A stretch of 39,933 nucleotides of DNA, from IMG/VR virus record IMGVR_UViG_2778261217_000006, positions 1 through 39,933 of that record. One strand, written 5' to 3'. Numbering within the stretch: position 1 is the stretch's first letter; each line of letters opens with the position of its first letter. The DNA comes from a virus (lineage: Duplodnaviria > Heunggongvirae > Uroviricota > Caudoviricetes). The notes under the pieces are model-generated. The model did no database searches. It was given only the letters and a program-made list of their open reading frames with translations, and was not told the DNA's origin. The translations under genes and the position numbers were made by a program. Below are positions 1,184 through 39,933 of this stretch, piece after piece.

Positions 1184-1666
1184 ATGGAAGAACTTCACTT
1201 TGTTTACATCAATGCAAATGGTCGTATCGCTGTTCACTCTATACAGAGCATCAGTTATAGCGAAAATCATATACAGGGCATTTGTAAGAACACCGATCGA
1301 ATAAAAACCTTCCGAAAAGACCGCATTCTTAAACAGTACGATTCACCAGAACAAGCCATTCAGGAATGCGCGTCATTCCTCCCCGAAAGCTACTCACATC
1401 TCACTAAGCAGTCTGGTCCGAAAAAAAATACATTCGATGTGTGTTTCACCGGATTTAAGAAAGCAGATAAAGAAAGATTGGTTGATAAGGCGAATGAACA
1501 AGGATTAACGGTAAGAACCTCTATAACCCAAAGCCTTCAGATGCTCTGTTGCGGTTACAATGCAGGCCCATCAAAAGTATCGGCAGCCAGGATGAAAGGC
1601 ACAATCATCATAGATGAGCCTGGCTTTATACATTTTCTTGAAACGGGTGAGATCCCAGATGAATAA
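1184..1666 (+). CDS. Hypothetical protein with C-terminal BRCT-like domain (prophage moron between attL and ogr)
   Basis: ATG preceded by AGAGG. C-terminal ~75 aa (FDVCFTGF...GPSKVSAARMKGTIIIDEPGFIHFLETG) follows the BRCT pattern of NAD-ligase C-termini; N-terminal ~80 aa unrecognised. Confidence 0.6.
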   Translation: MEELHFVYINANGRIAVHSIQSISYSENHIQGICKNTDRIKTFRKDRILKQYDSPEQAIQECASFLPESYSHLTKQSGPKKNTFDVCFTGFKKADKERLVDKANEQGLTVRTSITQSLQMLCCGYNAGPSKVSAARMKGTIIIDEPGFIHFLETGEIPDE

Positions 1667-3562: not shown

Positions 3563-6500
3563 GCGTCGTATCCCCCCTGATCGCTGTAGTTACTCCTGGC
3601 TTTTGCCTTCAGCCTGCGTTCACGTTCATCAAGCTGGCGTGCCACCTCCCGCGCAATATCCTGCGCACTTTGTCCTGGCTGCGTCTGAATGATGATCTGC
3701 GTCGGTGCCTCAATCCGTTGAACGAGCGGCACAGTGGCTGCGCGACTCACAATTGCTTCTCCACCTTTCGCGGGAAGTGCCAAAGGGTGCAACGGTGGAA
3801 GCTCTGCTGGCGCGGCAGCAACGCCCATCATTCCGGCAACAACGGCAGCCAGTGCAGCTGTATTTCTCCGGCTGGTCACATTTGCCGGGCCGTTAACAAT
3901 TTCCGGCCCGTTTTCACCGACGATGCCAAACTGCCCGCGCGGGATATACCCGCCGCTGTCATACATCCCCGCAAAGCCATATCCCCATGATGGAAAACCA
4001 CCCGATGGCATCATCACTTTACCGTCTGCATTCACCGTCGCAGGTTGCTGACGCGTCACGCTTTCCGGCAGTTTTGCCTTTGCGGCCTCTTTACTGACAA
4101 TGCCGAGCTTCTCCAGCAACCAGGAAACGCCGGATTTCAGGGAGTCCAGCGGATGCATGACCATATTCAGCCCTTCCGCCAGTGCCTCCCCGAATCGCCG
4201 CCCCATTGCCGCTGCGCTCTGCAGTTCGGCAGAGGTCGACTTAACGGGCGTCAGCAGATCAGTAAACCAGCCCCACAGCGCCTGCACTTTGTCGCCAATC
4301 CACTGGAACACGGGCTTAAGCGGTTCGAACGCTGCACTGATGGGACCTGCCGCCGCTTTGAATCCTTCCACCACGCCACCGAGAAATGCGGTGATGGGTT
4401 GCCAGTATTTCCAGACAACCAGCGCCACGCCCGCCAGTGCAGTAACCACAAGACCTATCGGACTGAGCAGAGCACCTAACAGACCAGATATGGCATACAG
4501 GGCAACGCGCAGCATCGCCAGTGGACCAGATGCCAGTACTCGCAGCACCGTGCCTGCGGCGGCCAGTCCACCGCGCAGTACCGCCAGAGGATTCATAAAC
4601 ATCACAGCAACAGCACGTAAACCGGATAATCCAGACCGCAAAAGTACAACCGGCGCACCTGCTACAGTTTTCAGGACATTTCCCGTCAGTGATGCCGTGC
4701 GGCGCAAAGACGACAACGGCGCAGTAAGTAAACCTGCGGCGTTGCCCGATGAAGCAAGCCCGCGTCGCAGCAGTGCCAGTGGTGCGCCAGCCAGCCAGGA
4801 CAACGCGCTGCTGGTTCGAGTTACTGCTGCCGTAACGGAAGATAACGTTTTGATACCCAACACAGAGAATCCCAGACGGATCACTGCCAGCGGCCCCAGC
4901 ACTGCAGCCAGCGCCAGCGCTAAGGTGCCAAGGCCGACGGTAACCGCAGCCACAACAGCCGATGCTTTCATCAGTGTGCCTGTCAGTTCCGGGTTAGCTT
5001 CCACCCAGCGACGCAACGCCCCCGTGACGATTTTCACCGTGTACAGAATATCCATCAGCGGCTGGCGCAGCGTTTCGCCCAGGCTGCTGAAGGTGTTCTG
5101 CGCTCCGGTTTTGACCAGCAACCACTGCGCAGAAAGTGAATCCTTGTTAATGTCGGATTCTTTCTGCATGGAGCCGAGCGCATCATTGCCCGCTGTCAGT
5201 TTTAACTGACGCTGCAGTTCCGGCAGGTTGTTTGCCAGTTTCGCCGCGTCATCGCCAAACTCTTTACCAAACAACATAGTCATGGCAGACAGGCGCTTGT
5301 CCTGCGGCAGCGCGTTTACCTTCTCCAGCACGCGCTGGATGGTTCCCATCGCATCCTTCGTCATCTGCTTTTCAATCACTTCAGGATTGAGTTTCAGCAG
5401 ATTCATCCCTTCAAAGAAACTCTTGCTTTGCATGGTGGCAATGGACAATTCACGCACCATCGCGTTTGCTGCACTGGCTGCAACCTCTGGCGCAGCGCCC
5501 AGTGTCAGGAAGGTGGAACCCAGCGCCGCCGCTTTACGATAATCCAGACGGTCAGCCACACCGCCCAGACGTTGCATCACATCAATGATGTCTGCCCCTT
5601 TCGACATGGCGTTATCATCCAGATAGTTCAGCGCATCACCGAGCTGTTCAATATTGCGGGTGGGGATTTTGTAGAGCTGGGCGATTTTCCCCAGACTTTC
5701 TGACAGTTCATCCGCTGGCAGCTCAAAGGCTGTTGCCGCCTTTGCTGCCGTACTGGCGAAGGCCAGCAGGTCACGTTTCTGATCTTCCCAGCTGTCGTCA
5801 GGGTTTGCGACGTTCATGCGCGCACCACCTTCAACCAGTGCAGCGAAGTCCACCGCACCGTTTTCCATCGGCAACTGTTCGCTGGCAGCCTTGATGGCAT
5901 CCTGCATTTCATAAAAACGTGCAGTGCGGTTGCCATTATCGTCACGCAGACCATTGACCTGCTTTGCCACACCTTTCATGGCATCTTCCATGCTGGTATA
6001 GCTTTTTACTGCCGCCATCACTGGCGCACCCATTGCCAGCCCTGCAGCCGTGGTGGTGGCTCCGGCACCTGCAATACGATCACGCACCTCCAGCGAACGG
6101 GCATAACTGGCACGCGCTGCATTCATCCTGCGCTGAGCTTCCCCCAGTCGCTTCAGCCGCGCCTCCTGTTTCGAAAGTTCCTGGTTATAACGTGATGTTT
6201 CACGGGCTAAACGGGCAGTTGCTCCCGCATCGTCTTTCGCAGAAATTCCCGCCCGGTACAGTTCAGCACGCACAAGCGCCGTCTGCTGCTGCAGCTTTTT
6301 CTGGCGTTCTTCCAGGCGCTGAACAGCCAGCCGTTGACGGCCCAGAGCAACAACCTGACGTTGCGAAGGCGGCCCCATCGCTCCCAGTTCCTGACTGAGC
6401 AAATTTGCACGCTGGCGGGCATAGTTCAGCCTGTCGCCTAATTTCTGATTTTCTGCCTGCAGCTTTCGGAAGCTGTCCAGACTGCTCCCGGCCTGATCAA

Positions 6501-6636
6501 GCTGCTTTATTGCATCGCGGGATTTTTTGACAGCAGCAGCCAGTTCTCTTGAACTGGCCTGCGCAGATCGAAATGGGCGGGTGAGCTTGTCAACCGCATT
6601 AAGAATGACCTGCAGACGCAGGTTGTTATCACTCAT
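3559..6636 (-). CDS. T: Tail tape measure protein gpT
   Basis: 1025 aa, coiled-coil and Ala/Gly-rich hydrophobic repeats typical of tape measure proteins; follows E/E'. Confidence 0.9.
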   Translation of the reverse strand: MSDNNLRLQVILNAVDKLTRPFRSAQASSRELAAAVKKSRDAIKQLDQAGSSLDSFRKLQAENQKLGDRLNYARQRANLLSQELGAMGPPSQRQVVALGRQRLAVQRLEERQKKLQQQTALVRAELYRAGISAKDDAGATARLARETSRYNQELSKQEARLKRLGEAQRRMNAARASYARSLEVRDRIAGAGATTTAAGLAMGAPVMAAVKSYTSMEDAMKGVAKQVNGLRDDNGNRTARFYEMQDAIKAASEQLPMENGAVDFAALVEGGARMNVANPDDSWEDQKRDLLAFASTAAKAATAFELPADELSESLGKIAQLYKIPTRNIEQLGDALNYLDDNAMSKGADIIDVMQRLGGVADRLDYRKAAALGSTFLTLGAAPEVAASAANAMVRELSIATMQSKSFFEGMNLLKLNPEVIEKQMTKDAMGTIQRVLEKVNALPQDKRLSAMTMLFGKEFGDDAAKLANNLPELQRQLKLTAGNDALGSMQKESDINKDSLSAQWLLVKTGAQNTFSSLGETLRQPLMDILYTVKIVTGALRRWVEANPELTGTLMKASAVVAAVTVGLGTLALALAAVLGPLAVIRLGFSVLGIKTLSSVTAAVTRTSSALSWLAGAPLALLRRGLASSGNAAGLLTAPLSSLRRTASLTGNVLKTVAGAPVVLLRSGLSGLRAVAVMFMNPLAVLRGGLAAAGTVLRVLASGPLAMLRVALYAISGLLGALLSPIGLVVTALAGVALVVWKYWQPITAFLGGVVEGFKAAAGPISAAFEPLKPVFQWIGDKVQALWGWFTDLLTPVKSTSAELQSAAAMGRRFGEALAEGLNMVMHPLDSLKSGVSWLLEKLGIVSKEAAKAKLPESVTRQQPATVNADGKVMMPSGGFPSWGYGFAGMYDSGGYIPRGQFGIVGENGPEIVNGPANVTSRRNTAALAAVVAGMMGVAAAPAELPPLHPLALPAKGGEAIVSRAATVPLVQRIEAPTQIIIQTQPGQSAQDIAREVARQLDERERRLKAKARSNYSDQGGYDA

Positions 6637-6762
6637 CGTTGGCCCCGCTTCTCTGAATCGCTTTATACCGCCATTCCAGCACTTCGGTCAGCGGCATAAC
6701 GTCAGTAACGGATGGCGGCCAGTGAAAAATGGTGGCGATATCTGCCACCAGATCGTCAACCG

Positions 6763-7065
6763 TCAGGCTGTCGGTAAACCGGCAAGCACCGACTTCTTCA
6801 ACAAAAAAGTGACAACCTCAACCGACATGGCAGTGAGATCTGCCGGGTCCATCTCTGCAATTTCCTGTGCAGTCAGTGCCGGACTGGAGATGCGGGGGAT
6901 CACGGTCATCATCGCGTTTACATCCATATCCATAATGGCCTGCAGGCGTGTACCGCGCAGCGCACCGGACTGCGGTTTACGCAGCACAATTTCGGTGATT
7001 TCTGTTTTACCGCGCTTGATGGGGGTATCCAGTTGAATGGTCTTTTCAGTCTGCTTATCGCTCAT
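6763..7065 (-). CDS. E: Tail chaperone gpE; -1 frameshift product E+E' would extend to 6629
   Basis: 100 aa ORF; slippery heptamer T_TTT_TTG at 6802..6808 (minus strand) with the -1 frame open to a TGA at 6629 overlapping the T start. Confidence 0.8.
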   Translation of the reverse strand: MSDKQTEKTIQLDTPIKRGKTEITEIVLRKPQSGALRGTRLQAIMDMDVNAMMTVIPRISSPALTAQEIAEMDPADLTAMSVEVVTFLLKKSVLAGLPTA

Positions 7066-20912: not shown

Positions 20913-22679
20913 ATGAACACCACACTGACACCCGCAGATCTCGATCCCCGTCGGCAGGCCATGCTGCTGTACTTTCAGGGATACCGCGTAGCCCGCATTG
21001 CTGAAATGCTGGGCGAGAAAGTTGCAACCGTTCACAGCTGGAAAAAACGCGACAAGTGGGGTGACTATGGGCCGCTGGATCAGATGCAGCTCACCACCGC
21101 CGCACGCTATTGCCAGCTCATTATGAAGGAGCACAAAGAAGGGAAAGATTTCAAAGAAATTGACCTGCTGGCACGCCAGTCGGAGCGCCACGCGCGGATC
21201 GGCAAGTTTAACAATGGCGGCAACGAAGCCGACTTAAACCCTAACGTCGCCAACCGCAACAAAGGGCCGCGCCGTCAGCCGGAAAAGAATGTTTTCACCG
21301 ATGAACAGATTGAGAAGCTGGAAGAAATCTTCCATTCCTCCATGTTCAACTACCAGCGCCACTGGTGGGAAGCTGGAAAAACCAACCGCATCCGTAATCT
21401 GCTGAAGTCACGCCAGATCGGCGCGACCTTTTACTTTGCCCGTGAAGCCCTGATTGACGCCCTGCTTACCGGACGTAACCAGATTTTCCTTTCTGCCAGT
21501 AAGGCACAGGCTCACGTCTTTAAGCAATACATCATCGACTTCGCCAAAGAAGTCGAGGTGGAGCTGAAAGGCGATCCGATGGTGCTTCCTAACGGGGCCA
21601 CGCTTTACTTCCTCGGCACCAATGCCCGCACTGCCCAGAGTTATCACGGCAACCTATATCTGGATGAATATTTCTGGATACCGAAATTCCAGGAGCTGCG
21701 CAAAGTGGCTTCCGGTATGGCTATTCACAAAAAATGGCGACAAACCTATTTTTCCACGCCATCCAGCCTGACACACAGTGCTTATCCGTTCTGGTCTGGT
21801 GCGCTGTTCAACCGTGGGCGCAACAAAGCCGATAAGGTGGACATCGACCTGTCCCACAGCAATCTGGCCCCCGGCCTGCTGTGCGCAGACGGGCAATACC
21901 GCCAGATAGTCACCGTGGAAGATGCAGTGCGCGGCGGATGTAACCTTTTCGACCTCGATCAGTTGCGCATGGAGTACAGCCCGGACGAATACCAGAACCT
22001 GCTGATGTGCGAGTTTGTGGACGATCTCGCGTCCGTGTTCCCGCTCAGCGAGCTGCAGGCGTGCATGGTGGACAGTTGGGAAGTCTGGAGCGACTTTCAT
22101 GCACTGGCCCTGCGCCCGTTTGGCTGGCGCGAAGTGTGGATCGGTTATGACCCGGCAAAAGGTACGCAAAACGGCGACAGCGCCGGGTGCGTGGTGGTGG
22201 CACCGCCAGCCGTGCCGGGCGGTAAGTTCCGCATTCTTGAGCGTCACCAGTGGCGCGGGATGGACTTCCGCGCCCAGGCTGACGCCATCAAAAAACTGAC
22301 TGAACAGTACAACGTGACCTACATCGGCATCGACTCAACCGGCGTCGGTCACGGGGTTTACGAGAACGTGAAAGCGTTTTTTCCTGCCGTCCGGGAGTTT
22401 GTCTACAACCCCAACGTTAAAAACGCCCTGGTACTCAAGGCCTACGACATTATTAGCCACCGCCGCCTGGAGTTTGACGCTGGGCACACCGACATAGCGC
22501 AGTCCTTTATGGCAATCCGTCGCGCCACCACTGCCAGCGGCAACCGCCCGACCTATGAAGCCAGCCGCAGCGAAGAAGCCAGCCACGCCGATCTGGCCTG
22601 GGCAACAATGCACGCACTGTTTAATGAACCGCTGCAGGGCGAGTCCGCCAATACCAGCAATATTGTGGAGATTTTTTGA
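20913..22679 (+). CDS. P: Terminase large (ATPase) subunit gpP
   Basis: 588 aa, P2 P-like. Confidence 0.9.
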   Translation: MNTTLTPADLDPRRQAMLLYFQGYRVARIAEMLGEKVATVHSWKKRDKWGDYGPLDQMQLTTAARYCQLIMKEHKEGKDFKEIDLLARQSERHARIGKFNNGGNEADLNPNVANRNKGPRRQPEKNVFTDEQIEKLEEIFHSSMFNYQRHWWEAGKTNRIRNLLKSRQIGATFYFAREALIDALLTGRNQIFLSASKAQAHVFKQYIIDFAKEVEVELKGDPMVLPNGATLYFLGTNARTAQSYHGNLYLDEYFWIPKFQELRKVASGMAIHKKWRQTYFSTPSSLTHSAYPFWSGALFNRGRNKADKVDIDLSHSNLAPGLLCADGQYRQIVTVEDAVRGGCNLFDLDQLRMEYSPDEYQNLLMCEFVDDLASVFPLSELQACMVDSWEVWSDFHALALRPFGWREVWIGYDPAKGTQNGDSAGCVVVAPPAVPGGKFRILERHQWRGMDFRAQADAIKKLTEQYNVTYIGIDSTGVGHGVYENVKAFFPAVREFVYNPNVKNALVLKAYDIISHRRLEFDAGHTDIAQSFMAIRRATTASGNRPTYEASRSEEASHADLAWATMHALFNEPLQGESANTSNIVEIF

Positions 22680-23716
22680 TGGGAAAGAGTAAGAAAAACC
22701 GCGCTGCGGCGACGAATCAGCTCAAGCATAAAAGCCAAACTTTAGCCGAAGCATTCAGCTTTGGCGATCCCGTTCCTGTTCTGGACCGCCGTGAACTGCT
22801 GGACTATGTGGAATGCGTACAGATGGATCGCTGGTATGAGCCGCCCGTCAGCTTTGACGGACTGGCACGAACCTTCCGCGCCGCCGTGCATCACAGCTCA
22901 CCAATTGCGGTGAAATGCAACATTCTGACCAGTACCTACATCCCTCACCCGCTGCTCAGCCAGCAGGCTTTTTCACGTTTTGTGCAGGACTATCTGGTAT
23001 TTGGTAACGCCTACCTGGAGAAACGCACGAACCGCTTCGGTGAAGTTATCGCCCTTGAGCCTGCTCTGGCAAAATACACCCGACGCGGGTTAGACCTGGA
23101 TACCTACTGGTTTGTGCAATACGGTATGACAACCCAGCCGTATCAGTTCACGAAAGGCAGCATTTTTCATCTGATGGAACCTGACATCAACCAGGAGATC
23201 TACGGCCTACCAGGTTATCTTTCTGCCATTCCGTCAGCCCTGCTCAACGAGTCCGCCACGCTGTTCCGCCGGAAGTATTACATTAACGGCAGCCATGCAG
23301 GCTTCATCATGTACATGACCGATGCCGCGCAGAACCAGGAGGATGTGAACAACCTCCGCAATGCGATGAAAAGCGCCAAAGGCCCTGGCAACTTCCGCAA
23401 CCTGTTTATGTACTCGCCTAACGGCAAAAAGGACGGACTTCAGATTATCCCGTTGTCAGAAGTCGCAGCGAAGGATGAGTTTCTGAATATCAAGAACGTG
23501 AGCCGTGATGACATGATGGCTGCGCACCGCGTGCCGCCGCAAATGATGGGGATTATGCCTAATAATGTCGGGGGATTTGGTGATGTGGAAAAGGCCAGCA
23601 AAGTCTTTGTCCGAAACGAGCTAATTCCGCTACAGAAGCGGCTGCAAGAACTTAACCAATGGGTTGGTGAAGAGGTAGCTCGCTTTGAATCATATTGTCT
23701 AGAACCAAGGGAATAA
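22676..23716 (+). CDS. Q: Portal protein gpQ
   Basis: 346 aa, P2 Q-like; overlaps P by 4 nt. Confidence 0.9.
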   Translation: MMGKSKKNRAAATNQLKHKSQTLAEAFSFGDPVPVLDRRELLDYVECVQMDRWYEPPVSFDGLARTFRAAVHHSSPIAVKCNILTSTYIPHPLLSQQAFSRFVQDYLVFGNAYLEKRTNRFGEVIALEPALAKYTRRGLDLDTYWFVQYGMTTQPYQFTKGSIFHLMEPDINQEIYGLPGYLSAIPSALLNESATLFRRKYYINGSHAGFIMYMTDAAQNQEDVNNLRNAMKSAKGPGNFRNLFMYSPNGKKDGLQIIPLSEVAAKDEFLNIKNVSRDDMMAAHRVPPQMMGIMPNNVGGFGDVEKASKVFVRNELIPLQKRLQELNQWVGEEVARFESYCLEPRE

Positions 23717-23760: not shown

Positions 23761-24600
23761 TTAGATGGCTGGGTTGATGTAATCACCCACGTCATCACCT
23801 TGTAGACTAATGTACTCAACCCGCCACTGGTCCATTCGCCGTAACGCATACAGACTGAATTCAACGTCAGGAACTGCGTTACAAGACATAAGCGCAATGA
23901 GTTCACTTTCAGACGCATCACCATGGTACGTTACAAAGAACTCTTCAATTTGTGTTGCCGCCTGCTCTGCCTCTGCTCTTGCATCCGGCCCACCATCTAT
24001 AGAATCATAGACAAGATGAATATTCAGTTCGTAAGGTACACCTTCCTCTAAATCATTGAAACGATCTTCGCCTAAATCAAAGAATACACCTATCAAATAG
24101 ACTGAATGTTTGCTAATTATCTTTGCGAGTTCTTTTTCGAATCTAAATTTCTTTGTGTCGAAAGCTCTTAGCCTACTCTCAAAAACATCAGGAAAGGCAG
24201 GTCGCCCATAGCGGGCAGCAAGCCATTGTTTTAAACCTTGCTTTTCCTCAGGGGATATTTGGCAAGTAGGGTCACATCCCACACACGTGAAACGTTCTTT
24301 ATCAATACGAAATTTGTTGTCATGTCTTAGTTCAATTGCATTTTGATTCGCGTCACGCGCTTGCTCTAAATGCAAATGCAGAACTCTGGGATGTTTAGCA
24401 CGTGCATAATTGCTGGCCCCCTTAATGAGAGGGCCAGCAATAAGCTCAACGCTGGGTTCAGAAGAGCTTTGCAAGTCACAATCATGACTGATCACGACAA
24501 CTTTAACGCCTATTTCCTCTTCGGTAAGAATACCCAAAGAAACTGCATCCTCATGCCTAAGAACCTGGCCTTGGCGCCATGCTGTAGCAATATCAACCAT
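23761..24600 (-). CDS. Hypothetical protein, cargo operon gene 3 (279 aa)
   Basis: ATG with AAGGAG upstream; 10 bp after the gene 2 stop; no family I can recognise (Cys cluster FTCVGCDPTC, acidic C-terminus). Confidence 0.7.
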   Translation of the reverse strand: MVDIATAWRQGQVLRHEDAVSLGILTEEEIGVKVVVISHDCDLQSSSEPSVELIAGPLIKGASNYARAKHPRVLHLHLEQARDANQNAIELRHDNKFRIDKERFTCVGCDPTCQISPEEKQGLKQWLAARYGRPAFPDVFESRLRAFDTKKFRFEKELAKIISKHSVYLIGVFFDLGEDRFNDLEEGVPYELNIHLVYDSIDGGPDARAEAEQAATQIEEFFVTYHGDASESELIALMSCNAVPDVEFSLYALRRMDQWRVEYISLQGDDVGDYINPAI

Positions 24601-24610
24601 AAATGACTAT

Positions 24611-25252
24611 CTACTCCTTCATTCCTGAACCAGGTATAGAAACAGACGACATCCACCCGTCAGTTGGCGTGCTTTTGCTCCCAGTTAAATTCGCTTTTAC
24701 ACCTGCAATTTTAAGCTGGCGAGCTTCATCGATTAAGAGATTCACAGACGACTTCCAGTCATCGCCTCGCTTAATCAAATCAATAATAGATAAGCCGTCA
24801 AACGCTTTCATTTTTGACATCAACTTAGCATTTTCTACTCCTGCTTTGTTAAAGCGATCGGCTAATCTACTGAGTTCAATGATGTAACCAGCTTTCCCAA
24901 TATCATCAGGCTGACTGTCACCGGATAACCATTTGTATAATGCTTGCCTAGTAATACCCAAATCTTTAGCCAGTTCTGACATTGATGGAGAAAGAGTATC
25001 CCTAACATTACTTAAATGTTCTGAAATTGTCCTGATATCAACAGGGTCATTATCTGTATCCCCATGATTTTCAAGTTTAGATAACCCAAAATGGACTTTA
25101 GGTTGTACAAAACCACGCCACTGGTTTACATCCTTCACAGAATAGCTCGCTCCTGTTCCACTCAGGAACATAGAGGTTGCAACAAATAACGCTCCAGCAA
25201 TAGGAGCTAAACCAGGAGTCCCATAGCAACTACCAGTCATGGATTGACGCAT
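24611..25252 (-). CDS. Hypothetical protein with central XRE-type helix-turn-helix, cargo operon gene 2 (213 aa)
   Basis: Start set at the ATG preceded by GGGGAGGTG (the track ORF begins at a GTG at 25279); HTH MSELAKDLGITRQALYKWLSG; hydrophobic Gly-rich N-terminal segment. Confidence 0.7.
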   Translation of the reverse strand: MRQSMTGSCYGTPGLAPIAGALFVATSMFLSGTGASYSVKDVNQWRGFVQPKVHFGLSKLENHGDTDNDPVDIRTISEHLSNVRDTLSPSMSELAKDLGITRQALYKWLSGDSQPDDIGKAGYIIELSRLADRFNKAGVENAKLMSKMKAFDGLSIIDLIKRGDDWKSSVNLLIDEARQLKIAGVKANLTGSKSTPTDGWMSSVSIPGSGMKE

Positions 25253-25269
25253 ATTACACCTCCCCGGTG

Positions 25270-26076
25270 TTATACCCACCTATTAATGGCATGTTGGGAT
25301 ACCATTTTATTAAAGCTTTCCTTTACAACACCATGTAGTGAATTGAACTGTTGCTCAATTGAATCTATTTCTGGCGGCATGTTTCCTTCAACATAATGGT
25401 CTGTATCAATAATTCCATGCCAAAGAGCCTTGTCGCTCCTGAACCGCTCAAGCATTTCAACCCCAAAGGGCAAGATATCTGGAGGAAAACTCAACTGACC
25501 AAACATCTTATGCAAACGAGTTACTAAAAAGCCAGTACTTATAACAGGACCAACATTTGTTTGGAAAACCATCTCGTTAACCGATTGTATCGGAGATAAA
25601 TCCAAATCTACACCATGTAAGCCATTGCAAAGGTACTGCTCAATCTTTTCACCCTCACTAGGTATTACGGCATCCAGATACCTCAAACCAAGTCTTGTCA
25701 AAAGGGCTGGGTTAGCATGTTCTATTACGACAGACAATCCTTCCATCAATGCTTTAAAGAACGGTTCATGTTCTTTGTAATCAGTCGTCTGGAAAGTAAT
25801 AAAATCGTTACCCAAGACAAAACCTGAAGTCTTAGTGATGTCAGACATATACCACTGCTGGACCATTTCAAAAGATGGCTGAGGCGATTCACCGGGCGTA
25901 TTAACATCAAACACCATTTGCATTGCCTCTCTTCTTTCAAAGAGTGGATAGCCCCTTAAACGCAATGCTTCCTGAATGTCATCGACATACTTTTTCATCG
26001 CCTTGATAGGCGTAAACTTAACTTGCGCCAGCACATAGTATACGGGTGCATTGGACATGCGATTGCTGTCACTCAT
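25270..26076 (-). CDS. Hypothetical protein, cargo operon gene 1 (268 aa)
   Basis: ATG preceded by AGGAGG; first gene of a co-directional trio; no recognisable P2/186 core homolog. Confidence 0.75.
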   Translation of the reverse strand: MSDSNRMSNAPVYYVLAQVKFTPIKAMKKYVDDIQEALRLRGYPLFERREAMQMVFDVNTPGESPQPSFEMVQQWYMSDITKTSGFVLGNDFITFQTTDYKEHEPFFKALMEGLSVVIEHANPALLTRLGLRYLDAVIPSEGEKIEQYLCNGLHGVDLDLSPIQSVNEMVFQTNVGPVISTGFLVTRLHKMFGQLSFPPDILPFGVEMLERFRSDKALWHGIIDTDHYVEGNMPPEIDSIEQQFNSLHGVVKESFNKMVSQHAINRWV

Positions 26077-26434: not shown

Positions 26435-26668
26435 TTAATGCAGCCAGCTGTCGTCTTCCCACACCTTCTGCATAATTTTCATCACTTGTTTTCTTTCTTC
26501 GTCCTGTTGCAGCCCGGTCAGTTCCACACCGTTAGAGCTACCTTTGCGGATACGAATTACCATTTTGGGATACAGGGGGCGCAGATTGCGGTAAAGCTCG
26601 GATTCAAGGGCGTCCAGGGTAGACTGGCTAATCTTCTGCTCTTTATCGATCATTATTTCAATGCGCAT
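26435..26668 (-). CDS. DinI-family protein (78 aa)
   Basis: MRIEIMIDK...IDALESEL...VWEDDSWLH aligns along its length with E. coli DinI; start set at the ATG with GAGG upstream (the track ORF begins at 26740). Confidence 0.8.
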   Translation of the reverse strand: MRIEIMIDKEQKISQSTLDALESELYRNLRPLYPKMVIRIRKGSSNGVELTGLQQDEERKQVMKIMQKVWEDDSWLH

Positions 26669-26678
26669 AAAAGTCACC

Positions 26679-26867
26679 TCAGCTGATGACATCCATTGAG
26701 CGGTTGTATTCGTGGCTTCTGATTTTTGCCATGAGTTCATCAGTCAATTCAGAAACCCACTGCAGAGCCAGCCCCTTCTCTTCATCACTACACTCACTAG
26801 CCGCTACAAGCTTAAGAAAAAAATCAATGCGCTGGAGCTTCAAAGACTCCAAAAAAAAGTCCTGCAT
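26679..26867 (-). CDS. Small hypothetical protein (62 aa), first gene of the LexA-box operon
   Basis: ATG preceded by AGGAGGAAAG; directly downstream of the LexA box. Confidence 0.55.
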   Translation of the reverse strand: MQDFFLESLKLQRIDFFLKLVAASECSDEEKGLALQWVSELTDELMAKIRSHEYNRSMDVIS

Positions 26868-32600: not shown

Positions 32601-32777
32601 AGTGCAGTATCTCTTGGTTTAAGCTCGTTTTATGATGTTTAACCCCAACTTCTAAACTCTCATATTAGAAGTTAAATACAAAAATACGATCTCGTTATTG
32701 GATTGTCAAATGGAGAGTTCATCTTGAAGATTAGTACAGGTGCAAATACGGGAGGGAGAGAGACCATCAAAAGGCTG

Positions 32778-33353
32778 ATGACAGCCTATGGTTTCAACAC
32801 TCAGATAGCGTTGGTTGAACACCTCGAAGCATCAAAAAGCACCATGGCAAACAGGATGTTACGTGATAGCTTCCCTGCTGACTGGGTTATTCAATGTGCC
32901 CTTGAAACAGGTATTTCTCTTCTTTGGCTGACAACGGGCCAAGGGGAAATGTATCCTCAAACAGAAGAAAAAAATAAGTTCAAAAACGAGAGTTCACCTA
33001 CAGTTCGCCCCCTTTCAAAGATAGTTATCCCATCAGTAAGGCAGGCAACCATTGAGAACGGAACGCTCGAAGAGATGGGGGATGTTTTCCTTGATCAGAC
33101 TTTGATACCCGGAAAAGCCGAATATTGTTTGTACGTCAAAGCTAACGACGGCAATTACATTGTTGATACATCAACAAAACAGCTTAGTAACGGAATTTGG
33201 CTCATAGACATCGACGGTATGAAAAACATCGTCAAAATTGCGCGCATACCTGGAAACAAAATAGTAGTTAACCAAGATGACACTTCATTTGAATGTTCTG
33301 TAGATGATGTGGAAGTCGTAGGACGTGCAGTCAAAGTAATCAAGAACCTCTAA
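32778..33353 (+). CDS. cI: Immunity repressor CI (186 CI-like, no S24 peptidase domain)
   Basis: N-terminal HTH ending CALETGISLLWLTTGQGE; start set at the ATG at 32778 giving 191 aa (the track ORF begins at a TTG at 32703). Confidence 0.7.
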   Translation: MTAYGFNTQIALVEHLEASKSTMANRMLRDSFPADWVIQCALETGISLLWLTTGQGEMYPQTEEKNKFKNESSPTVRPLSKIVIPSVRQATIENGTLEEMGDVFLDQTLIPGKAEYCLYVKANDGNYIVDTSTKQLSNGIWLIDIDGMKNIVKIARIPGNKIVVNQDDTSFECSVDDVEVVGRAVKVIKNL

Positions 33354-33356
33354 CTT

Positions 33357-34382
33357 ATGACCATCAGAAAACAGCCGAACGGAAAGTGGTTATGTGAATG
33401 CTACCCAAACGGGAGAGATGGCAAACGCGTACGCAAACAATTTGCGACGAAAGGCGAAGCCATTGCGTTTGAGAATTTCACCATGGATGAGGTAAACAAG
33501 AAACCTTGGCTGGGAGAAAAGGAAGATCGGCGACAACTGTCAGAAGTGATTGAGCAATGGTATTCCCTGTACGGTCAGACACTCGCTGACCCTAAGCGAT
33601 TAATGGCTAAGTTAAAAATCATTTGTAATGGACTTGGCGATCCCATCGCTTCTGAATTGACAGCAGGTGATTTCACAAAGTACCGGGAAGCCAGATTAAA
33701 AGGTGAGGTCAAAAACGAAGATGGCGTGCTCATGTCACCGGTTAAGCCCAGAACGGTGAACCTTGAACAGCGTAACCTATCCTCAGTTTTTGGCACACTG
33801 AAAAAGCTGGGACATTGGTCTGCACCCAACCCCCTCGCCGGTCTGCCAACTTTCAAAATTGCAGAAGGTGAACTGGCGTTCCTTGCTGCTGATGAAATCA
33901 AACGCCTGCTTGACGCATGTGCTGAATCTCAAAGTCCCAGTCTGCTAATGATTGCCAAGATTTGCCTGGCTACCGGGGCAAGATGGAGCGAAGCCGAAAA
34001 CCTGCAAGGTAACCAGATATCAAAGTATCGAATTACCTATACCAAAACAAAAGGAAAGAAAAACCGAACTGTTCCTATTTCTCAGGAACTGTATGAAGAA
34101 TTACCCAAAAACAGAGGAAAGTTATTCACACCATGCCGAAAGGCTTTTGAGCGTGCGGTAAAACGAGCTGGAATTGAACTACCTGAAGGTCAATGTACCC
34201 ACGTTCTGCGCCACACTTTCGCCAGTCACTTTATGATGAACGGCGGAAACATTTTGGTATTGAGGGATATTTTAGGACACGCTGATATTAAAATGACCAT
34301 GATTTATGCCCATTTTGCACCGGATCATCTGGAAGATGCCGTTACCAAAAATCCACTTCATAACCTCAACTGGCATCGCTAA
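33357..34382 (+). CDS. int: Tyrosine integrase (P2/186 type)
   Basis: 341 aa with catalytic RHRY context (ARWSE, HVLRHTF, MIYAHF); 4 nt after cI and about 120 bp from the att repeat. Confidence 0.9.
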   Translation: MTIRKQPNGKWLCECYPNGRDGKRVRKQFATKGEAIAFENFTMDEVNKKPWLGEKEDRRQLSEVIEQWYSLYGQTLADPKRLMAKLKIICNGLGDPIASELTAGDFTKYREARLKGEVKNEDGVLMSPVKPRTVNLEQRNLSSVFGTLKKLGHWSAPNPLAGLPTFKIAEGELAFLAADEIKRLLDACAESQSPSLLMIAKICLATGARWSEAENLQGNQISKYRITYTKTKGKKNRTVPISQELYEELPKNRGKLFTPCRKAFERAVKRAGIELPEGQCTHVLRHTFASHFMMNGGNILVLRDILGHADIKMTMIYAHFAPDHLEDAVTKNPLHNLNWHR

Positions 34383-34499: not shown

Positions 34500-34544
34500 A
34501 TGTAGGAATTTCGGACGCGGGTTCAACTCCCGCCAGCTCCACCA
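34500..34544 (+). repeat. attR core: second copy of the 45-bp ssrA 3'-end repeat; also the left boundary of the next island
   Basis: Identical to 1016..1060. Confidence 0.85.
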
Positions 34545-34709
34545 CTTTTTAGTTGTTTGAAGTTCAATGAAGTCTACTAAGCCCACACAGCACAAGCTCT
34601 GCGGGCTTTTTTACGTCTATTGTCGTCCAGTGAGAATTGCTGAGAACTACGAGTTATGGCACCCTGAATGGGACCCATTAAGAAGGGTCCAAAAACCGAG
34701 GGTCCCAAA

Positions 34710-35939
34710 ATGGCAAAAATCGCTAAGAAGCTCACTGACACTGAAATCAAAAGCACCAAGCCAGCCGATAAAGAAATCAACTTGTTTGACGGTGATGGTC
34801 TGATTCTACGAATCGCTCCTTTGGCGAAAGGAGGCAAGAAAAATTGGTATTTCAGGTATGCAGTACCAGTGAGCAAGAAAAGAACCAAAATGAGCCTTGG
34901 GACATATCCTCACCTTACCCTTGCAAGAGCCAGAGCCTTACGTGATGAATATCTCTCCTTTCTGGCAAATGGTGTTGATCCCCAAATCCATAACAACGAT
35001 AAGGCGAAGGCATTAAAGAGTGCTACTGAGCACACTCTCCAAGCCGTAGCGCGGAAATGGTTAGATGAGAAGGTAAAGACATCAGGTATCTCACAAGACC
35101 ATGCAGCAGACATCTGGCGCAGCTTAGAGAGAAATGTCTTTCCCGGTCTGGGTAATGTCCCTATCAATGAGATCCGACCTAAGCTCTTAAAACAACACCT
35201 TGATCCTATTGAGCAACGAGGCGTATTGGAAACTCTACGCCGTATCATTTCACGTCTGAATGAAATCTTCCGGTGGGCAGCTACTGAAGAACTTATTGAG
35301 TTCAACCCGGCTGACAACCTTGGTCAAAGATTCAGTAAACCAAAAAAGCAAAATATGCCTGCCCTTCCCCCAAGCGAATTGCCAAGGTTTATGGAATCTT
35401 TGACGAATGCGTCAATCCGGTTGGAAACACGTATGCTAATTGAATGGCAATTGTTGACATGGGTTCGTCCGGGTGAAGCCGTTCGCGCAAGGTGGTCTGA
35501 TATTGATACAACCAACAGCATTTGGAACATTCCTGCTGATTTCATGAAAATGAAAAAGCTTCACAAAGTTCCTTTGAGTAAAGAAGCTTTGCGCATCCTT
35601 GAATTAATGAAATCAATAAGTGGGCATAGAGAATGGGTTTTCCCCAGCATAAAAGCGCCTCTTAATCATATGCATGAACAAACAGCCAACGCAGCTATCA
35701 TCCGAATGGGGTTCGGAGGCGAGCTTGTAGCTCACGGTATGCGTTCTATTGCACGAACAGCGGCAGAGGAGTCTGGTAAATTCAGAGCTGAAGTTCTTGA
35801 GGCAGCGCTTGCCCACTCGAAAAAAGATGAAATTATCGCAGCATACAATCGTGCAGAATATCTGATAGAGCGACAGAGTTTGATGCAATGGTGGAGTGAT
35901 TACGTTCAAGCTCAAAGATCAAATGCTCTGGTAGCCTAA
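34710..35939 (+). CDS. P4-type tyrosine integrase (IntA-like)
   Basis: Begins MAKIAKKLTDTEIKSTKPADKEINLFDGDGL..., the typical P4-integrase N-terminus; ATG at 34710 has GAGGG upstream (the track ORF starts at 34668). Confidence 0.85.
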   Translation: MAKIAKKLTDTEIKSTKPADKEINLFDGDGLILRIAPLAKGGKKNWYFRYAVPVSKKRTKMSLGTYPHLTLARARALRDEYLSFLANGVDPQIHNNDKAKALKSATEHTLQAVARKWLDEKVKTSGISQDHAADIWRSLERNVFPGLGNVPINEIRPKLLKQHLDPIEQRGVLETLRRIISRLNEIFRWAATEELIEFNPADNLGQRFSKPKKQNMPALPPSELPRFMESLTNASIRLETRMLIEWQLLTWVRPGEAVRARWSDIDTTNSIWNIPADFMKMKKLHKVPLSKEALRILELMKSISGHREWVFPSIKAPLNHMHEQTANAAIIRMGFGGELVAHGMRSIARTAAEESGKFRAEVLEAALAHSKKDEIIAAYNRAEYLIERQSLMQWWSDYVQAQRSNALVA

Positions 35940-35977
35940 GTATCAGAATAGCTAATATAATCCTGAAGGTAAAGAAA

Positions 35978-36394
35978 ATGGAAACCCTATTCAAAGTTTT
36001 TGAAAAATTTAGTTCCAGACCACTTTTTTTTATTTTTTTCGGACTCTCACTTTGTGAATTTTTTCAGAAACAATCTGTTCTGATGAATCCATCAGCAGAT
36101 AACATCGCGAAATTATTCGCAGCCATGATATTAGTTGTTTTTTTTACTTGGGGATTTGAATGGCTAATCTTCAAGTTCAATGTAAACCTTGAACCTCATG
36201 ATCAAGGCGATATTGGACCAACAATTGGAACGGCTACTTTAGCTGTATACTTAGTTTATGCCTTTCACTTTCTCAGTGAAAATCCTGAAGCATTAAATTT
36301 AAAGTTATTAACTAACTCTGGCTTTATATACAGCACAACTCTATTATTATTCTCATTAGAATGCATGAAGCTTAGAAGACTTAAACAAAAATAA
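35978..36394 (+). CDS. Small hydrophobic membrane protein (138 aa), hypothetical
   Basis: Several predicted transmembrane stretches; AT-rich; AAGG upstream of the ATG. Confidence 0.45.
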   Translation: METLFKVFEKFSSRPLFFIFFGLSLCEFFQKQSVLMNPSADNIAKLFAAMILVVFFTWGFEWLIFKFNVNLEPHDQGDIGPTIGTATLAVYLVYAFHFLSENPEALNLKLLTNSGFIYSTTLLLFSLECMKLRRLKQK

Positions 36395-36465
36395 ACAACA
36401 TCATTGTGATGATAAATATAAAATAGGCATGGCGAAAAAAAATCACCACGCCTAAAATATAATAA

Positions 36466-38214
36466 TTATGGTAGCATCATTGATACATAATCCACACCAA
36501 TCCTTGAGCTATACTGAGACGCTATAGCCTGATATCTTTCTGCATAACCAGTTCTCAGTTGAGATTTAAGTTTGAGTCGGACAGGAACATTTTGCACGTT
36601 GCCATCCATATTACTTAAAAACACGGCAGAAATAATATTTTTTTCTTCGCCATCAACTGTTGTTCCATGATTCAACACCACCATATAATCAACAACAGGA
36701 AGCGTTTTATCCCCTTCGAAAATAGAGAGATATTTTCTTTGATTTTTATGCATTACATATATATATTTCGAATGTTCAGCAAATGGCAATGCTTTACTCT
36801 GACTGGCGTTAAAAAGCTCCAGAACTTTAATGAGCCTGTGCGGACTTAATCTTACATGGTGAGGGTCGTTACCCTGAGTAGGAACCAAATCACATGCCGC
36901 AGATACACATAAATACCATTTGTTCGACTCTGTATCAAAGAAAATAGTGCCAGTAGAAATATGACCATCTTCAAAATTCTTTGAAGACAAATTCATATTT
37001 AAAGCATGATACATTTCGTGATAAGTATCATTATTTGATGGCAGATCCATTTTTGAAGAGCAATATTGGAGCAATGCAGCAACTCCGCTGTTAGCGTATT
37101 CATTTGAATAGCTATCAAAAACACTTTTGATAAATTCATCCAGCGTATTATTATTTTTAAGTCTTTGATAAAGCTCTTCTGATAAATTACCAAATACAAA
37201 GTCAATATTTCTACATCTAATATCAGGCGAGTCTGATTTTAATATCTCATTTAACCACGCAGCTTGACCGTAATGATCGTTAGCCAAATGATTTACAAAA
37301 GATAAAGCCTCAGCTTCGATTGCATTCTGAATTTCAGATTTTATTAACTGATAATAAGATGGTTTCCATTCAATGAGAGAATCATTGAGAGTTTGCCAAA
37401 TCCTATCTCCATCGTTTTCATGATCATCTTGAACCTTATGAAATAGGGAGACAAAGATATTACCACATTGAATCCATTTTACTCCGCTTTCATCACCCCG
37501 AATGACATTGCCAGATGTGTTGCTAGAAATAATTGCATTTCTAGACACAGCATATTCTGCAATCATTTTTGCAATGAAGTTTTTATCCTTTTGATCCTCC
37601 AACACAGCATCATCATGTATTAATCTTTTAATTCTTCTACAAGGCTTACTGTCTTTAATATAGGCTATTGTTTCATCTCTTGTGAGAGCTTTATTACCAT
37701 TATCATTTAAGTTCGGTAATACAACGTCTTCCCAATAACTTTGGACATCTTCATTATCGTAGTCAATGATCAAGCTGTTGATATCCAGAGCACCTTTGAG
37801 AGTCGATGATATCTGCATCCAAACCGTTTCTAAATTCTCTCTAGTATATATTACAATCATATTTAAATGATCGGAGTCTTTCAAATCTTGTAATAGTTTA
37901 AGTGTTTTATCAGGTGCATTATTATCAAGATGATAATCTACAATAATAAGATCTGATTTTCTAATCCGATCCACATCGAAATTAACAGAACCATTGTCAA
38001 CATCACAAATCATATTTTTAGATTGAAAAAAGCTCTCAAGAGTAGCGGCTCGTTTAGATGAGTCAATTTTGTTGTAGTCTAAATCAACTTCGTTATTCAA
38101 CGCCCTGATTGATTCAGAATACGTCAGAAAATCGTCATCAATCATGACAACGGAACGAATTGCATTTTCGCAGAAAGTTTTCTGGACAAGAGAATTATAA
38201 TTTGCCACTGTCAT
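36466..38214 (-). CDS. Receiver (REC)-like domain protein with large uncharacterised C-terminal domain
   Basis: N-terminus has receiver-like landmarks (VVMIDDD, DLIIVDYHL, NMIVIYT); about 440 aa C-terminal region unrecognised; start set at the ATG overlapping the kinase stop (TAATATG); the track ORF extends to 38232. Confidence 0.65.
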   Translation of the reverse strand: MTVANYNSLVQKTFCENAIRSVVMIDDDFLTYSESIRALNNEVDLDYNKIDSSKRAATLESFFQSKNMICDVDNGSVNFDVDRIRKSDLIIVDYHLDNNAPDKTLKLLQDLKDSDHLNMIVIYTRENLETVWMQISSTLKGALDINSLIIDYDNEDVQSYWEDVVLPNLNDNGNKALTRDETIAYIKDSKPCRRIKRLIHDDAVLEDQKDKNFIAKMIAEYAVSRNAIISSNTSGNVIRGDESGVKWIQCGNIFVSLFHKVQDDHENDGDRIWQTLNDSLIEWKPSYYQLIKSEIQNAIEAEALSFVNHLANDHYGQAAWLNEILKSDSPDIRCRNIDFVFGNLSEELYQRLKNNNTLDEFIKSVFDSYSNEYANSGVAALLQYCSSKMDLPSNNDTYHEMYHALNMNLSSKNFEDGHISTGTIFFDTESNKWYLCVSAACDLVPTQGNDPHHVRLSPHRLIKVLELFNASQSKALPFAEHSKYIYVMHKNQRKYLSIFEGDKTLPVVDYMVVLNHGTTVDGEEKNIISAVFLSNMDGNVQNVPVRLKLKSQLRTGYAERYQAIASQYSSRIGVDYVSMMLP

Positions 38215-38215
38215 A

Positions 38216-39052
38216 TTAGAACTCCACTCCATTGAACTGGATCACAAAATTAGCGCCATCTTTTATTAAATAGTTATCGCCTTCATCAGGTTCTGAATAC
38301 CATATTTTATGATGTGCAACAGCAAGGTTTTCTCGACATAGATACAGACCTACCCCATGTCCATTTGCTCTTTTGCTATAAAATAGTTCAAATAGTCGCG
38401 GGATATCATCGGTATCAATTGCCGGACCAGAATTTGCTATGATAACCAAAGAATTCACAAAACCAATCTTTATGAGCCTATTATTTGACAGACTGACCCA
38501 ATACATTGCATTGTTGATAATATTAGTAAAAACAGGATAGATCCTTGATGGTATATCTGTTATTGCGATTTGCTTAAACTCTTCACTAAATTCAATAGTT
38601 ATTCGTTGCCGTTCGAAACGCTCCCCAAAGAACTTCAGGACATAATCCATGATATTTTTTCCAGTTATTCTCTGCCTGGATTGATAACCTGATATTTTCA
38701 AAGGTGATAAGAAACGTATTTGTTGAGTAAGCGATCTGTGAGCATTTAACGCCAATGAAAAACCAGGGTGTTCTTTTACAGAAGTAGGAAGAGAGTTTAG
38801 TCCTCTGGTTACCATAGAATCCATTTCTTCAAGTTCATGAGATATTATCTCAACACTAATACCTAACTGTGCAAGCGCGTTTAAACTTTTAGCTTTTTCT
38901 TCAAAATATGAGCGTTCTTCTTCAGATAATGAGAATGCTGAATCTAAGTTTATACCTTCAAATAATCTATCGAGACCTTTTATTATTGATTGATATTTGA
39001 AAGTTAGGGTATCAACTGACTCAACATATAAACTATCGAGCAAATTAAACAC
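38216..39052 (-). CDS. Histidine-kinase-like protein (HisKA H-box plus HATPase_c N, G1, G2 boxes); frame is open upstream to 39226 with no start codon
   Basis: H-box ISHELEEM, N-box NIINNAMYW, G-boxes IANSGPAID and GHGVGLYL; the track start is a GTG; the frame continues upstream into the overlap with the next ORF. Confidence 0.7.
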   Translation of the reverse strand: MFNLLDSLYVESVDTLTFKYQSIIKGLDRLFEGINLDSAFSLSEEERSYFEEKAKSLNALAQLGISVEIISHELEEMDSMVTRGLNSLPTSVKEHPGFSLALNAHRSLTQQIRFLSPLKISGYQSRQRITGKNIMDYVLKFFGERFERQRITIEFSEEFKQIAITDIPSRIYPVFTNIINNAMYWVSLSNNRLIKIGFVNSLVIIANSGPAIDTDDIPRLFELFYSKRANGHGVGLYLCRENLAVAHHKIWYSEPDEGDNYLIKDGANFVIQFNGVEF

Positions 39053-39195
39053 ATTTTCAATTTGTGAATCATTATCTATTGAATCAACAACTGATATAGT
39101 TTTAGCATAATAATCACTTCGATCAACCTTTATTTCATCGGCCCATTTTTTTAAAAGAGAATGTATCTTCTCCTCTATCGTGTTATTAAACTTAG

Positions 39196-39933
39196 TTAGT
39201 TTAGAATTAATAATACCTTGATTTTTTCAAGGTGATTTTTCGCTGACAATGAAGGCTCAAGTTTATTTAATTCAGAATCAAGTTTATTAATTGCTAACTT
39301 CATTTGTAGAATATACGCAGAGAACTCATTAAATTTATCTCTGTAGTCTCTATATTTCTCTTCATACATTCCAAGTTTTGGAGGTTTGATAGGCGTTTTA
39401 ATTTCACTGCGCAACGCATCTAAGTTTGTAAGATCACTGTCTATAATTTTAAGATAGTTTAAATCTAACGAACCATCAGTTTTATCAAGCTTAGTTTTCA
39501 GCCTTTTAACAGCCTCCAAGGAAGCATCAAGAACTGGTGTCTGATTCTTCAAAGCTTCTGAAAAACTTTTTTGTGTTGATTTTCGAGCTTGTTGTTGAGC
39601 AGATTTTCTTAACTCTTTTTCACGCTTAACTTGTTCTAAAAGCTCTTTACGGTCATCAGAACGTGAACCAAAAAATCTATCAGCAAGTTCAGTTAACAAA
39701 TTAGATATAATAGTTTTCAGTTCTCTTGCAGCCTGGTTTCTTATGAATCCCTCTCTCCCCGACTTATCTTTCAGCTCTTTATTACTGGATTGAGTAATTC
39801 CAATATAACCAAAAATCCTTCTATTAGACCAATAATATCGCCCTGCATTCCATGAACGTCTTTCTTCTATCTGGAAGAAATCATTATCTACTCGACCATA
39901 AGGTAATACTCTCAAGCTATCCCTAAAAATCAT
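39196..39933 (-). CDS. Coiled-coil-rich ORF, 5' end beyond the window; probably the N-terminal part of the kinase gene separated by a frameshift
   Basis: Ends 30 nt inside the open upstream extension of the kinase frame; an A6 run lies at the frame junction. Confidence 0.55.
   Translation of the reverse strand: MIFRDSLRVLPYGRVDNDFFQIEERRSWNAGRYYWSNRRIFGYIGITQSSNKELKDKSGREGFIRNQAARELKTIISNLLTELADRFFGSRSDDRKELLEQVKREKELRKSAQQQARKSTQKSFSEALKNQTPVLDASLEAVKRLKTKLDKTDGSLDLNYLKIIDSDLTNLDALRSEIKTPIKPPKLGMYEEKYRDYRDKFNEFSAYILQMKLAINKLDSELNKLEPSLSAKNHLEKIKVLLILN

Follow-up and report, generated by a model that had tools for sequence, protein, structure and literature searches.

We analysed a stretch of 39,933 nucleotides (IMG/VR record IMGVR_UViG_2778261217_000006, positions 1 to 39,933), referred to below as the window. 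It is a piece of Escherichia coli chromosome at the ssrA locus, where a P2-like prophage is followed by a small AT-rich island. The subject of this report is a pair of genes at the far end of the island, which encode a histidine kinase and a protein with a phospho-receiver domain. A preliminary description made from the sequence alone had taken this pair for a candidate new or variant phosphorelay-based defence module that follows the logic of Detocs. The reading that we favour, with a probability of roughly 0.6, is that the pair is an IS3-truncated and frameshifted relic of a cassette of methylase, kinase and receiver, which resembles a restriction-modification (R-M) system with the kinase and the receiver replacing the restriction enzyme, and that this copy is probably inert.

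The kinase and receiver genes

The features of the two genes are as follows, all of them on the minus strand:

36424-36454, minus: terminator-like hairpin and T run, 12 nt past the receiver stop codon
36466-38214, minus: receiver gene, intact, encoding the receiver-domain protein of 582 aa (WP_000214990.1 in RefSeq genomes)
36469-37431, minus: C-terminal output region of the receiver protein (aa 262-582)
37435-38160, minus: REC domain (~aa 19-260) with a helical insertion at ~aa 145-226
37936-37938, minus: codon of the predicted phospho-acceptor D93
38216-39933, minus: kinase gene, in two pieces
38216-39227, minus: kinase gene, 3' part after the frameshift (coiled-coil end, DHp and catalytic ATP-binding domain)
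38276-38551, minus: HATPase_c domain (Pfam, E-value 7e-12)
38693-38869, minus: DHp domain (HEF_HK; Pfam, E-value 6e-6, 27.1 bits with a cut-off of 24.1)
38837-38839, minus: codon of the phospho-accepting His
39196-39933, minus: 5' part of the kinase gene (conserved FRD-LRVLPYGR...EERRS segment and coiled-coil start, then a premature stop after the frameshift)
39222-39227, minus: A6 run in which 1 nt has been deleted (A7 in E. coli UTAK-18, by alignment and frame analysis)

The kinase core that had been recognised by eye is confirmed by the two Pfam matches and by the H box (ISHELEE), the N box (NIINNAMYW) and the G2 box (GHGVGL). NCBIfam returned only sub-threshold generic histidine-kinase matches for this protein. 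Across 18 homologues the catalytic His, the His-Glu pair and the N, G1 and G2 boxes were invariant. The DHp domain belongs to the HEF_HK family and lacks the Thr/Asn that is linked to phosphatase activity, an absence that would be consistent with a one-way switch.

The gene is split in the window. What had been described as an incomplete gene upstream of the kinase (39196-39933) turned out to be part of the same kinase gene, separated from the rest by the deletion in the A run. Alignment to full-length kinases places the start of this piece at the internal Met417 of an ancestral kinase of 988 aa. With A7 in place of A6 there is a single open reading frame (ORF) of 572 aa, which is the RefSeq annotation and starts exactly at window position 39933. 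We searched 561 complete E. coli genomes with a 71-nt probe over the A run and found an exact match in only two of them, the other 559 being different; the frameshift is therefore either specific to the strain or a homopolymer sequencing error. The A run is also the loop of a perfect hairpin, CCTTGA-A(6/7)-TCAAGG, inside the kinase coding sequence (39215-39234, minus strand), and the terminator scan flagged this hairpin on both strands.

The kinase and the receiver gene do not overlap by 4 nt, as had been stated. The kinase stop codon and the start of the 582-aa receiver are 1 nt apart (TAA-T-ATG), and an alternative ATG at 38232, which gives a receiver of 588 aa, would overlap the kinase gene by 17 nt. 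At the other side of the receiver gene the hairpin at 36424-36454 marks the end of the operon. Its position comes from the terminator scan of a locus with 99.7% identity (L001, 16055-16025, 12-bp stem) and an offset of +20399. A promoter scan of the kinase-receiver region gave signals that were no better than chance.

The receiver protein matches PF19192 (Response_reg_2) in Pfam with an E-value of 3.7e-31, so the N-terminal receiver domain was correctly recognised. The conserved receiver residues of this family (DD/D/T/K) are present and are invariant among the homologues. The C-terminal part, for which no resemblance had been recognised, also escaped our searches: aa 262-582 had no sequence match in Pfam, NCBIfam, PADLOC or the PDB sequences (profile search included), a Pfam search at E <= 1 on all 53 receiver homologues gave only noise for this region and no helix-turn-helix (HTH) or other DNA-binding family, and Foldseek of the C-terminal model against the PDB gave nothing below an E-value of 0.057. 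The AlphaFold model has a pLDDT of 85.5 for the full-length receiver and 85.9 for the C-terminal part. In this model two domains make up the output region, one helical (~aa 268-410), the other rich in beta structure and ending in a helix (~aa 411-566, bases 36517-36984). Conserved motifs of the latter are ISTGT, CVSAACD-VP and QLR; a further one, RIGVD (aa 571-575), lies in the C-terminal tail just past it.

The output domain possibly has the fold of the toxins MazF and CcdB, which we treat as a lead only. A comparison of the family profile with E. coli MazF and CcdB by hhalign gave no signal. In a phmmer search of 1.84 billion representative sequences the output domain was limited to 212 clusters and was essentially always found at the C-terminus of a Response_reg_2 protein. 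We considered a stand-alone or otherwise fused form of the domain and rejected it, as the search returned only the Response_reg_2 architecture and fragments.

The intact allele and the three-gene cassette

In Klebsiella, Serratia and Salmonella there are proteins of 988 aa which are 99% identical to the E. coli kinase over its 572 residues. Their N-terminus is a HATPase_c_3 domain of the paraMORC type (GHKL), whose GHKL motifs are invariant among the homologues. Neither the window kinase nor any other E. coli copy of this allele has this domain. The intact allele is found on a contig (L002) that is 99% identical to window positions 34501-39933. Beyond the kinase gene this contig continues with a C5 cytosine methylase gene, the end of which overlaps the kinase start by 20 nt, followed by a relaxase, a NikA-like protein and further recombinases. 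The intact island thus comprises the methylase, the 988-aa kinase, the receiver, a 138-aa ORF and a P4-type integrase. Because the whole element sits next to smpB, we read it as an integrative mobilizable element at ssrA.

Comparing the E. coli locus to the intact allele, we observed that the homology stops 122 bp upstream of the annotated ATG, beyond the end of the window, at the terminal inverted repeat of an IS3 element. The IS3 transposase gene is co-oriented with the kinase remnant and lies immediately upstream of it, and on the far side of the IS3 follow the chromosomal genes ygaQ, glaH and gabDTP. No methylase gene was found in the window or beyond the kinase in the E. coli locus. The relic is present at an identity of at least 99% in about 560 of the 5426 complete E. 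coli genomes (~10%), and none of the 5426 contains the methylase and the 5' part of the kinase gene of this allele. The receiver gene itself is at least 99% identical in 559 E. coli genomes. Very likely an IS3-bounded deletion in the lineage of E. coli took out the methylase, ~376 kinase codons and the remainder of the element, and bases 34500-39933 are very likely the integrase-proximal stump of an integrative mobilizable element that carried the three-gene cassette as cargo. A receiver gene 100% identical to that of the window also occurs on a 7.5-kb contig (L012, DYWT01000267.1) of a metagenome-assembled genome (MAG) labelled as Sporosarcina psychrophila. This is very likely an E. coli contaminant contig that was binned into the MAG of a Firmicute.

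To describe the conserved unit we surveyed one genome per species, which resulted in 31 loci, and counted the 26 loci with enough flanking sequence. In all 26 a kinase of ~980-1010 aa is encoded on the same strand directly upstream of the receiver. An adjacent C5 methylase was detected at 23 of them, upstream and co-oriented in 19 cases and downstream and convergent in four. The pairing of kinase and receiver that had been seen in a single sequence therefore holds among the homologues and extends to the methylase. We also inspected six contexts that were reached via individual homologues: an integrative and conjugative element (ICE) of Acidobacteria, a Tn7-like transposon of Acinetobacter, a metagenome contig, two ICEs of Salmonella and a contig with Vsr in addition. 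All three cassette genes, the kinase at full length, occurred together in each of the six.

Among the 132 other neighbouring ORFs the recurrent partners were Vsr (8 loci), HNH_2 (3), an HTH_3 protein similar to R-M control (C) proteins (3), Fic (3) and genes of mobile elements, and there was no separate nuclease that is conserved with the cassette. The Acinetobacter copy lies beside an R-M control protein (E-value 4e-17) and the cassette methylase matches models of type II methyltransferases (E-value 7e-80). As the full-length kinase is constant, the methylase nearly so and no nuclease is conserved, the three-gene cassette is the conserved unit, and it is built like a type II R-M operon in which kinase and receiver take the place of the endonuclease. 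The preliminary description missed this unit, both the C5 methylase and the paraMORC ATPase. It was right in taking the pair for island cargo: in about a tenth of the complete E. coli genomes the genes are located at the ssrA attachment (att) site beside an integrase, and in other species they are carried by integrative mobilizable elements, ICEs and Tn7-like transposons.

Annotated lengths of the kinase have to be read with care. In Salmonella enterica serovar Bareilly (L011, positions 3992-6983, GCA_009468465.1) the kinase ORF is intact with ~994 codons, and tblastn aligned residues 1-987 in a single high-scoring segment pair. The record annotates only the C-terminal 572 aa of this kinase. 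We rejected a natural short variant of 572 aa in Salmonella, since the full ORF is intact and the annotation alone is short. An exact length of 572 aa is likewise listed for proteins of Pectobacterium, Yersinia, Klebsiella, Morganella and Serratia. Probably the short start was propagated from the abundant truncated protein of E. coli.

The remainder of the island and the prophage

The other features of the locus are given below:

1-483: smpB
698-1060: tmRNA gene (ssrA)
~1061-34499: P2-like prophage, flanked by exact 45-bp repeats of the ssrA 3' end
32703-34382: CI repressor and integrase of the prophage
34500-34544, plus: second copy of the 45-bp ssrA 3' end, identical to 1016-1060
34668-35939, plus: P4-type tyrosine integrase of the island (ORF of 423 aa, 409 aa in the RefSeq annotation)
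35978-36394, plus: hydrophobic ORF of 138 aa (PHROG 6556, E-value 1e-70, function unknown)

Two elements are thus arranged in tandem at ssrA, a complete P2-like prophage between att repeats and then the stump of the integrative mobilizable element. The repeat at 34500-34544 is the attachment-site copy at which the prophage ends on its right and the relic island on its integrase-proximal side. We did not find a distal att copy of the island in E. coli (none within 14 kb downstream at L001). The AT-rich character of the region is evident from a GC content of 0.33-0.35 across 36-39.9 kb compared to about 0.45-0.60 in the rest of the window.

The island integrase matches Arm-DNA-bind_3, Phage_int_M and Phage_integrase in Pfam and PRK09692 in NCBIfam (E-value 4.8e-132), and a P4-type integrase also adjoins the cassette in the intact island L002. 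The earlier assignment to the P4 type is therefore sound, but the integrase does not lie directly before the module as the 138-aa ORF is located between them. This ORF was found in the enterobacterial loci with the same backbone (L002, L003 and L011, and an ORF of the same size in L014), and it was not found beside the cassette in the distant loci L005-L010. Judged by this distribution, the ORF would be part of the island backbone and lie outside the conserved cassette.

Two observations concern the prophage. Its first ORF after the left attachment site (1184-1666, plus strand, 160 aa) matches PHROG 2561, 'DNA ligase', with an E-value of 2e-76 and has a weak match to the PADLOC candidate PDC-S48 (E-value 4e-7). 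Furthermore the prophage contains a 2.7-kb insert of low GC content (41-44%) between the portal gene (22676-23716) and DinI (26435-26740). Its three ORFs (window 23761-26076, minus strand) encode proteins of 279, 222 and 268 aa, for which PADLOC gave no matches and Pfam and PHROG almost none, the exception being a weak HTH in the middle ORF. In a related prophage of E. coli UTAK-18 the same slot measures only ~380 bp. We take this slot to be the tin/old cargo hotspot of P2, a known site of anti-phage genes. The insert is a candidate for uncharacterised defence cargo and is arguably more promising than the kinase-receiver pair.

Related systems and rival explanations

The pair of a HEF_HK and a Response_reg_2 protein is the founding material of the Pfam families PF19191 and PF19192 (Bellieny-Rabelo, Pretorius & Moleleki, Genome Biol Evol 2021, PMC8011034), and an E. 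coli representative is among the examples of that study. Its authors found the two genes adjacent in 91.6% of the cases over 644 regions and described the kinases as soluble, mostly with the architecture HATPase_c_3, HEF_HK and HATPase_c; group 1, whose kinases carry HATPase_c_3 at the N-terminus, accounts for 174 of 222 sequences. They also reported that C5 methylases, Vsr and HNH_2 are enriched near the pair and proposed an origin of the kinases from paraMORC ATPases (PMC8011034). The window pair agrees with this family as it matches both Pfam families, the genes are adjacent and co-oriented and the kinase is soluble. It differs from the majority in being frameshifted, in the loss of the methylase through the IS3-bounded deletion and in the absence of the N-terminal HATPase_c_3, the latter being a majority trait of the family and not an obligatory one. 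Contrary to the claim of a new or variant module the family is already known, and this copy is a decayed member and not a new system. Some members of the published 'group 2' without HATPase_c_3 may be such relics or owe their place to mis-annotated starts. The truncated 572-aa protein of E. coli appears to mislead annotation elsewhere and probably inflates this class.

Type II R-M operons can contain a C5 methylase, Vsr and a control protein, for example those of the EcoRII/Dcm/Vsr type. The cassette shares with them the C5 methylase that matches type II models, Vsr in 8 of the 26 loci, the control-protein HTH of the Acinetobacter copy and the carriage on mobile elements. Unlike these operons it has no recognisable restriction endonuclease, and the kinase and the receiver occupy the 'R' slot. 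ATPases of the paraMORC/MORC GHKL type occur in R-M-like operons (Iyer, Abhiman & Aravind 2008, as cited in PMC8011034), and paraMORC3 is Shedu type I-D (PMC12137116). The intact kinase resembles them in its N-terminal HATPase_c_3, its conserved Bergerat motifs and the R-M context; here the module is fused to a complete histidine-kinase core and not to a nuclease, and it is deleted in the window. Two further candidates were dropped. MADS (Maestri et al. preprint) describes no receiver or kinase component, and a mention of paraMORC in the V. cholerae WASA paper refers to Shedu and not to the HEF_HK/Response_reg_2 family.

The closest tested relative, though a distant one, is Ambrosia (2025 preprint) and not Detocs. 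Ambrosia (AbrR/A/B/C/D) comprises an XRE regulator, an N6-adenine methylase, the paraMORC-type kinase AbrB, a receiver of 209 aa and an HNH nuclease; it protects Pseudomonas from phages and the receiver Asp is required (bioRxiv 10.1101/2025.09.30.679545). The N-terminal 399 aa of AbrB show homology to the intact kinase (32% identity, BLASTP E-values 6e-11 and 4e-6), and this is the region that is deleted in the window copy. For the Ambrosia receiver AbrC we detected no BLAST similarity to the 582-aa receiver. Both systems combine a DNA methylase, a kinase of the HATPase_c_3...HATPase_c type and a receiver in one operon. Ambrosia has five genes with a separate HNH nuclease, whereas the cassette has three, with a C5-cytosine methylase, a receiver with a large output region of its own and no conserved nuclease. 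The XRE regulator, the N6-adenine methylase, the short receiver and the HNH nuclease are all absent from the window, and the intact cassette lacks the HNH. On these comparisons the cassette is best seen as a three-gene sibling of Ambrosia.

For the intact cassette we propose the following mechanism, that of an R-M-like module for self/non-self discrimination in which the restriction enzyme has given way to the kinase and the receiver. The methylase would mark the host (self) DNA. The MORC-like ATPase end of the kinase would engage DNA or sense its status or an infection, and the resulting autophosphorylation at His782 of the kinase would be followed by transfer of the phosphate to the receiver's Asp93. 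This would release the C-terminal output domain, which is possibly a toxin of the MazF/CcdB fold, either to stop growth or to attack the invader. Ambrosia supports the defence reading, as it acts against phages, needs its receiver Asp and has a homologous kinase AbrB. Whether the intact cassette represents a class of methylation-linked immunity, in which a MORC-like DNA-sensing ATPase, His-Asp phosphotransfer and a new toxin-like effector of the MazF/CcdB fold replace the endonuclease, is a more tentative matter, and we would give this idea somewhat under even odds.

The window copy has lost the methylase and the sensor ATPase and its kinase core is frameshifted, which is why we consider this module, with its receiver intact, to be probably inert and clonally inherited. 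We infer that the joint loss of the methylase and the sensor ATPase would be expected if a cell could not safely lose the methylase by itself, although this argues from a single event. Several points weigh against our overall reading. The receiver gene and the kinase core are intact and at least 99% identical in about 560 E. coli genomes. The IS3 reads toward the remnant, so that expression and some residual function are possible, and the frameshift of the window could be a homopolymer sequencing error. The authors of PMC8011034 and of 10.1101/2025.09.30.679545 favour a role of the receiver in transcriptional regulation. Ambrosia has been shown to act against phages, whereas the HEF_HK/Response_reg_2 family is known from sequences alone. 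Finally, no model of PADLOC 2.0, a release whose Detocs content is unconfirmed, matched the kinase or the receiver, in the window or in the intact forms, at E < 0.01.

There are three other explanations. In the first, the kinase and the receiver are a transcriptional regulator of linked R-M genes and not an effector: the phosphorylated receiver would bind DNA via its helical middle domain and switch on the methylase or an unlinked nuclease. Such a role was speculated on for the family (PMC8011034), and in Ambrosia infection raises reporter expression and a winged HTH is ascribed to the receiver (bioRxiv 10.1101/2025.09.30.679545). The middle of the C-terminal region is indeed all-helical in the AlphaFold model. 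However, the 53 members contain no HTH or other DNA-binding Pfam family, and the output of ~320 aa with its conserved beta-rich domain is unlike the known outputs of response regulators. There is also no nuclease gene conserved with the cassette that could be regulated, and the dissimilarity of the Ambrosia receiver further limits the comparison. We therefore regard a regulator as unlikely, though worth keeping in mind. An ordinary housekeeping regulator, which the preliminary description had set against its own proposal, does not fit either, as no DNA-binding output was found and the pair does not belong to the core genome.

The second explanation accepts the truncation and assumes that the relic is alive. 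The shortened kinase, consisting of DHp and catalytic domain and read through from IS3, would form with the receiver a domesticated module without a sensor that is kept for defence, addiction or regulation, and the frameshift of the window would be a sequencing error. That 559 of the 561 carriers differ from the A6 probe and that the A7 form is in frame in UTAK-18 fits this well, as do the intact motifs of the kinase core, the conservation of the receiver gene, which is mostly uninterrupted, and the co-oriented transposase gene immediately upstream. Against this, near-identity among the carriers is what recent clonal descent would give and says nothing about selection, and in some carriers the receiver gene is interrupted by IS elements or has short indels. 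The region also showed no promoter signal beyond chance. The N-terminal ATPase is kept in all 26 species-level homologues, which suggests that it is essential. We find a living relic distinctly improbable, more so than a regulator.

Detocs, to which the pair had been compared, consists of a kinase with a TPR sensor, a stand-alone buffer receiver and a receiver fused to an effector, usually a PNP, encoded by the three genes DtcA/DtcB/DtcC (Rousset et al., 10.1101/2023.01.24.525353). The general logic of the comparison survives, namely a His-Asp phosphorelay as an immune switch with a soluble kinase, conserved relay residues, a receiver fused to an output that does not bind DNA and carriage on mobile elements, but the composition does not: there are only two phosphorelay genes and no small stand-alone receiver ORF (34.5-39.9 kb searched), Pfam detected neither TPR nor PNP in the window proteins, no other known Detocs effector is present and the N-terminus of the intact kinase is a GHKL ATPase. 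A system of the Detocs type, in which a phage-sensing kinase phosphorylates a receiver-effector and cell death or arrest follows without any dependence on DNA methylation, is thus very improbable, since two associations point to a system that depends on DNA modification: the almost constant one with a C5 methylase (23 of 26 loci), which is not described for Detocs, and the one with Vsr.

The relic in this window is in itself of little significance, since its family is already covered by Pfam entries and by a paper of its own and this copy has decayed. The survey gives a sharper outline of that family than has been published, and together with the defence by Ambrosia it makes the intact cassette a well-defined target for the study of phosphorelay-gated, methylation-linked immunity. 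If the cassette does act in this way, the E. coli relic would be a natural experiment in which the loss of the methylase was tolerated only together with the loss of the sensor domain.

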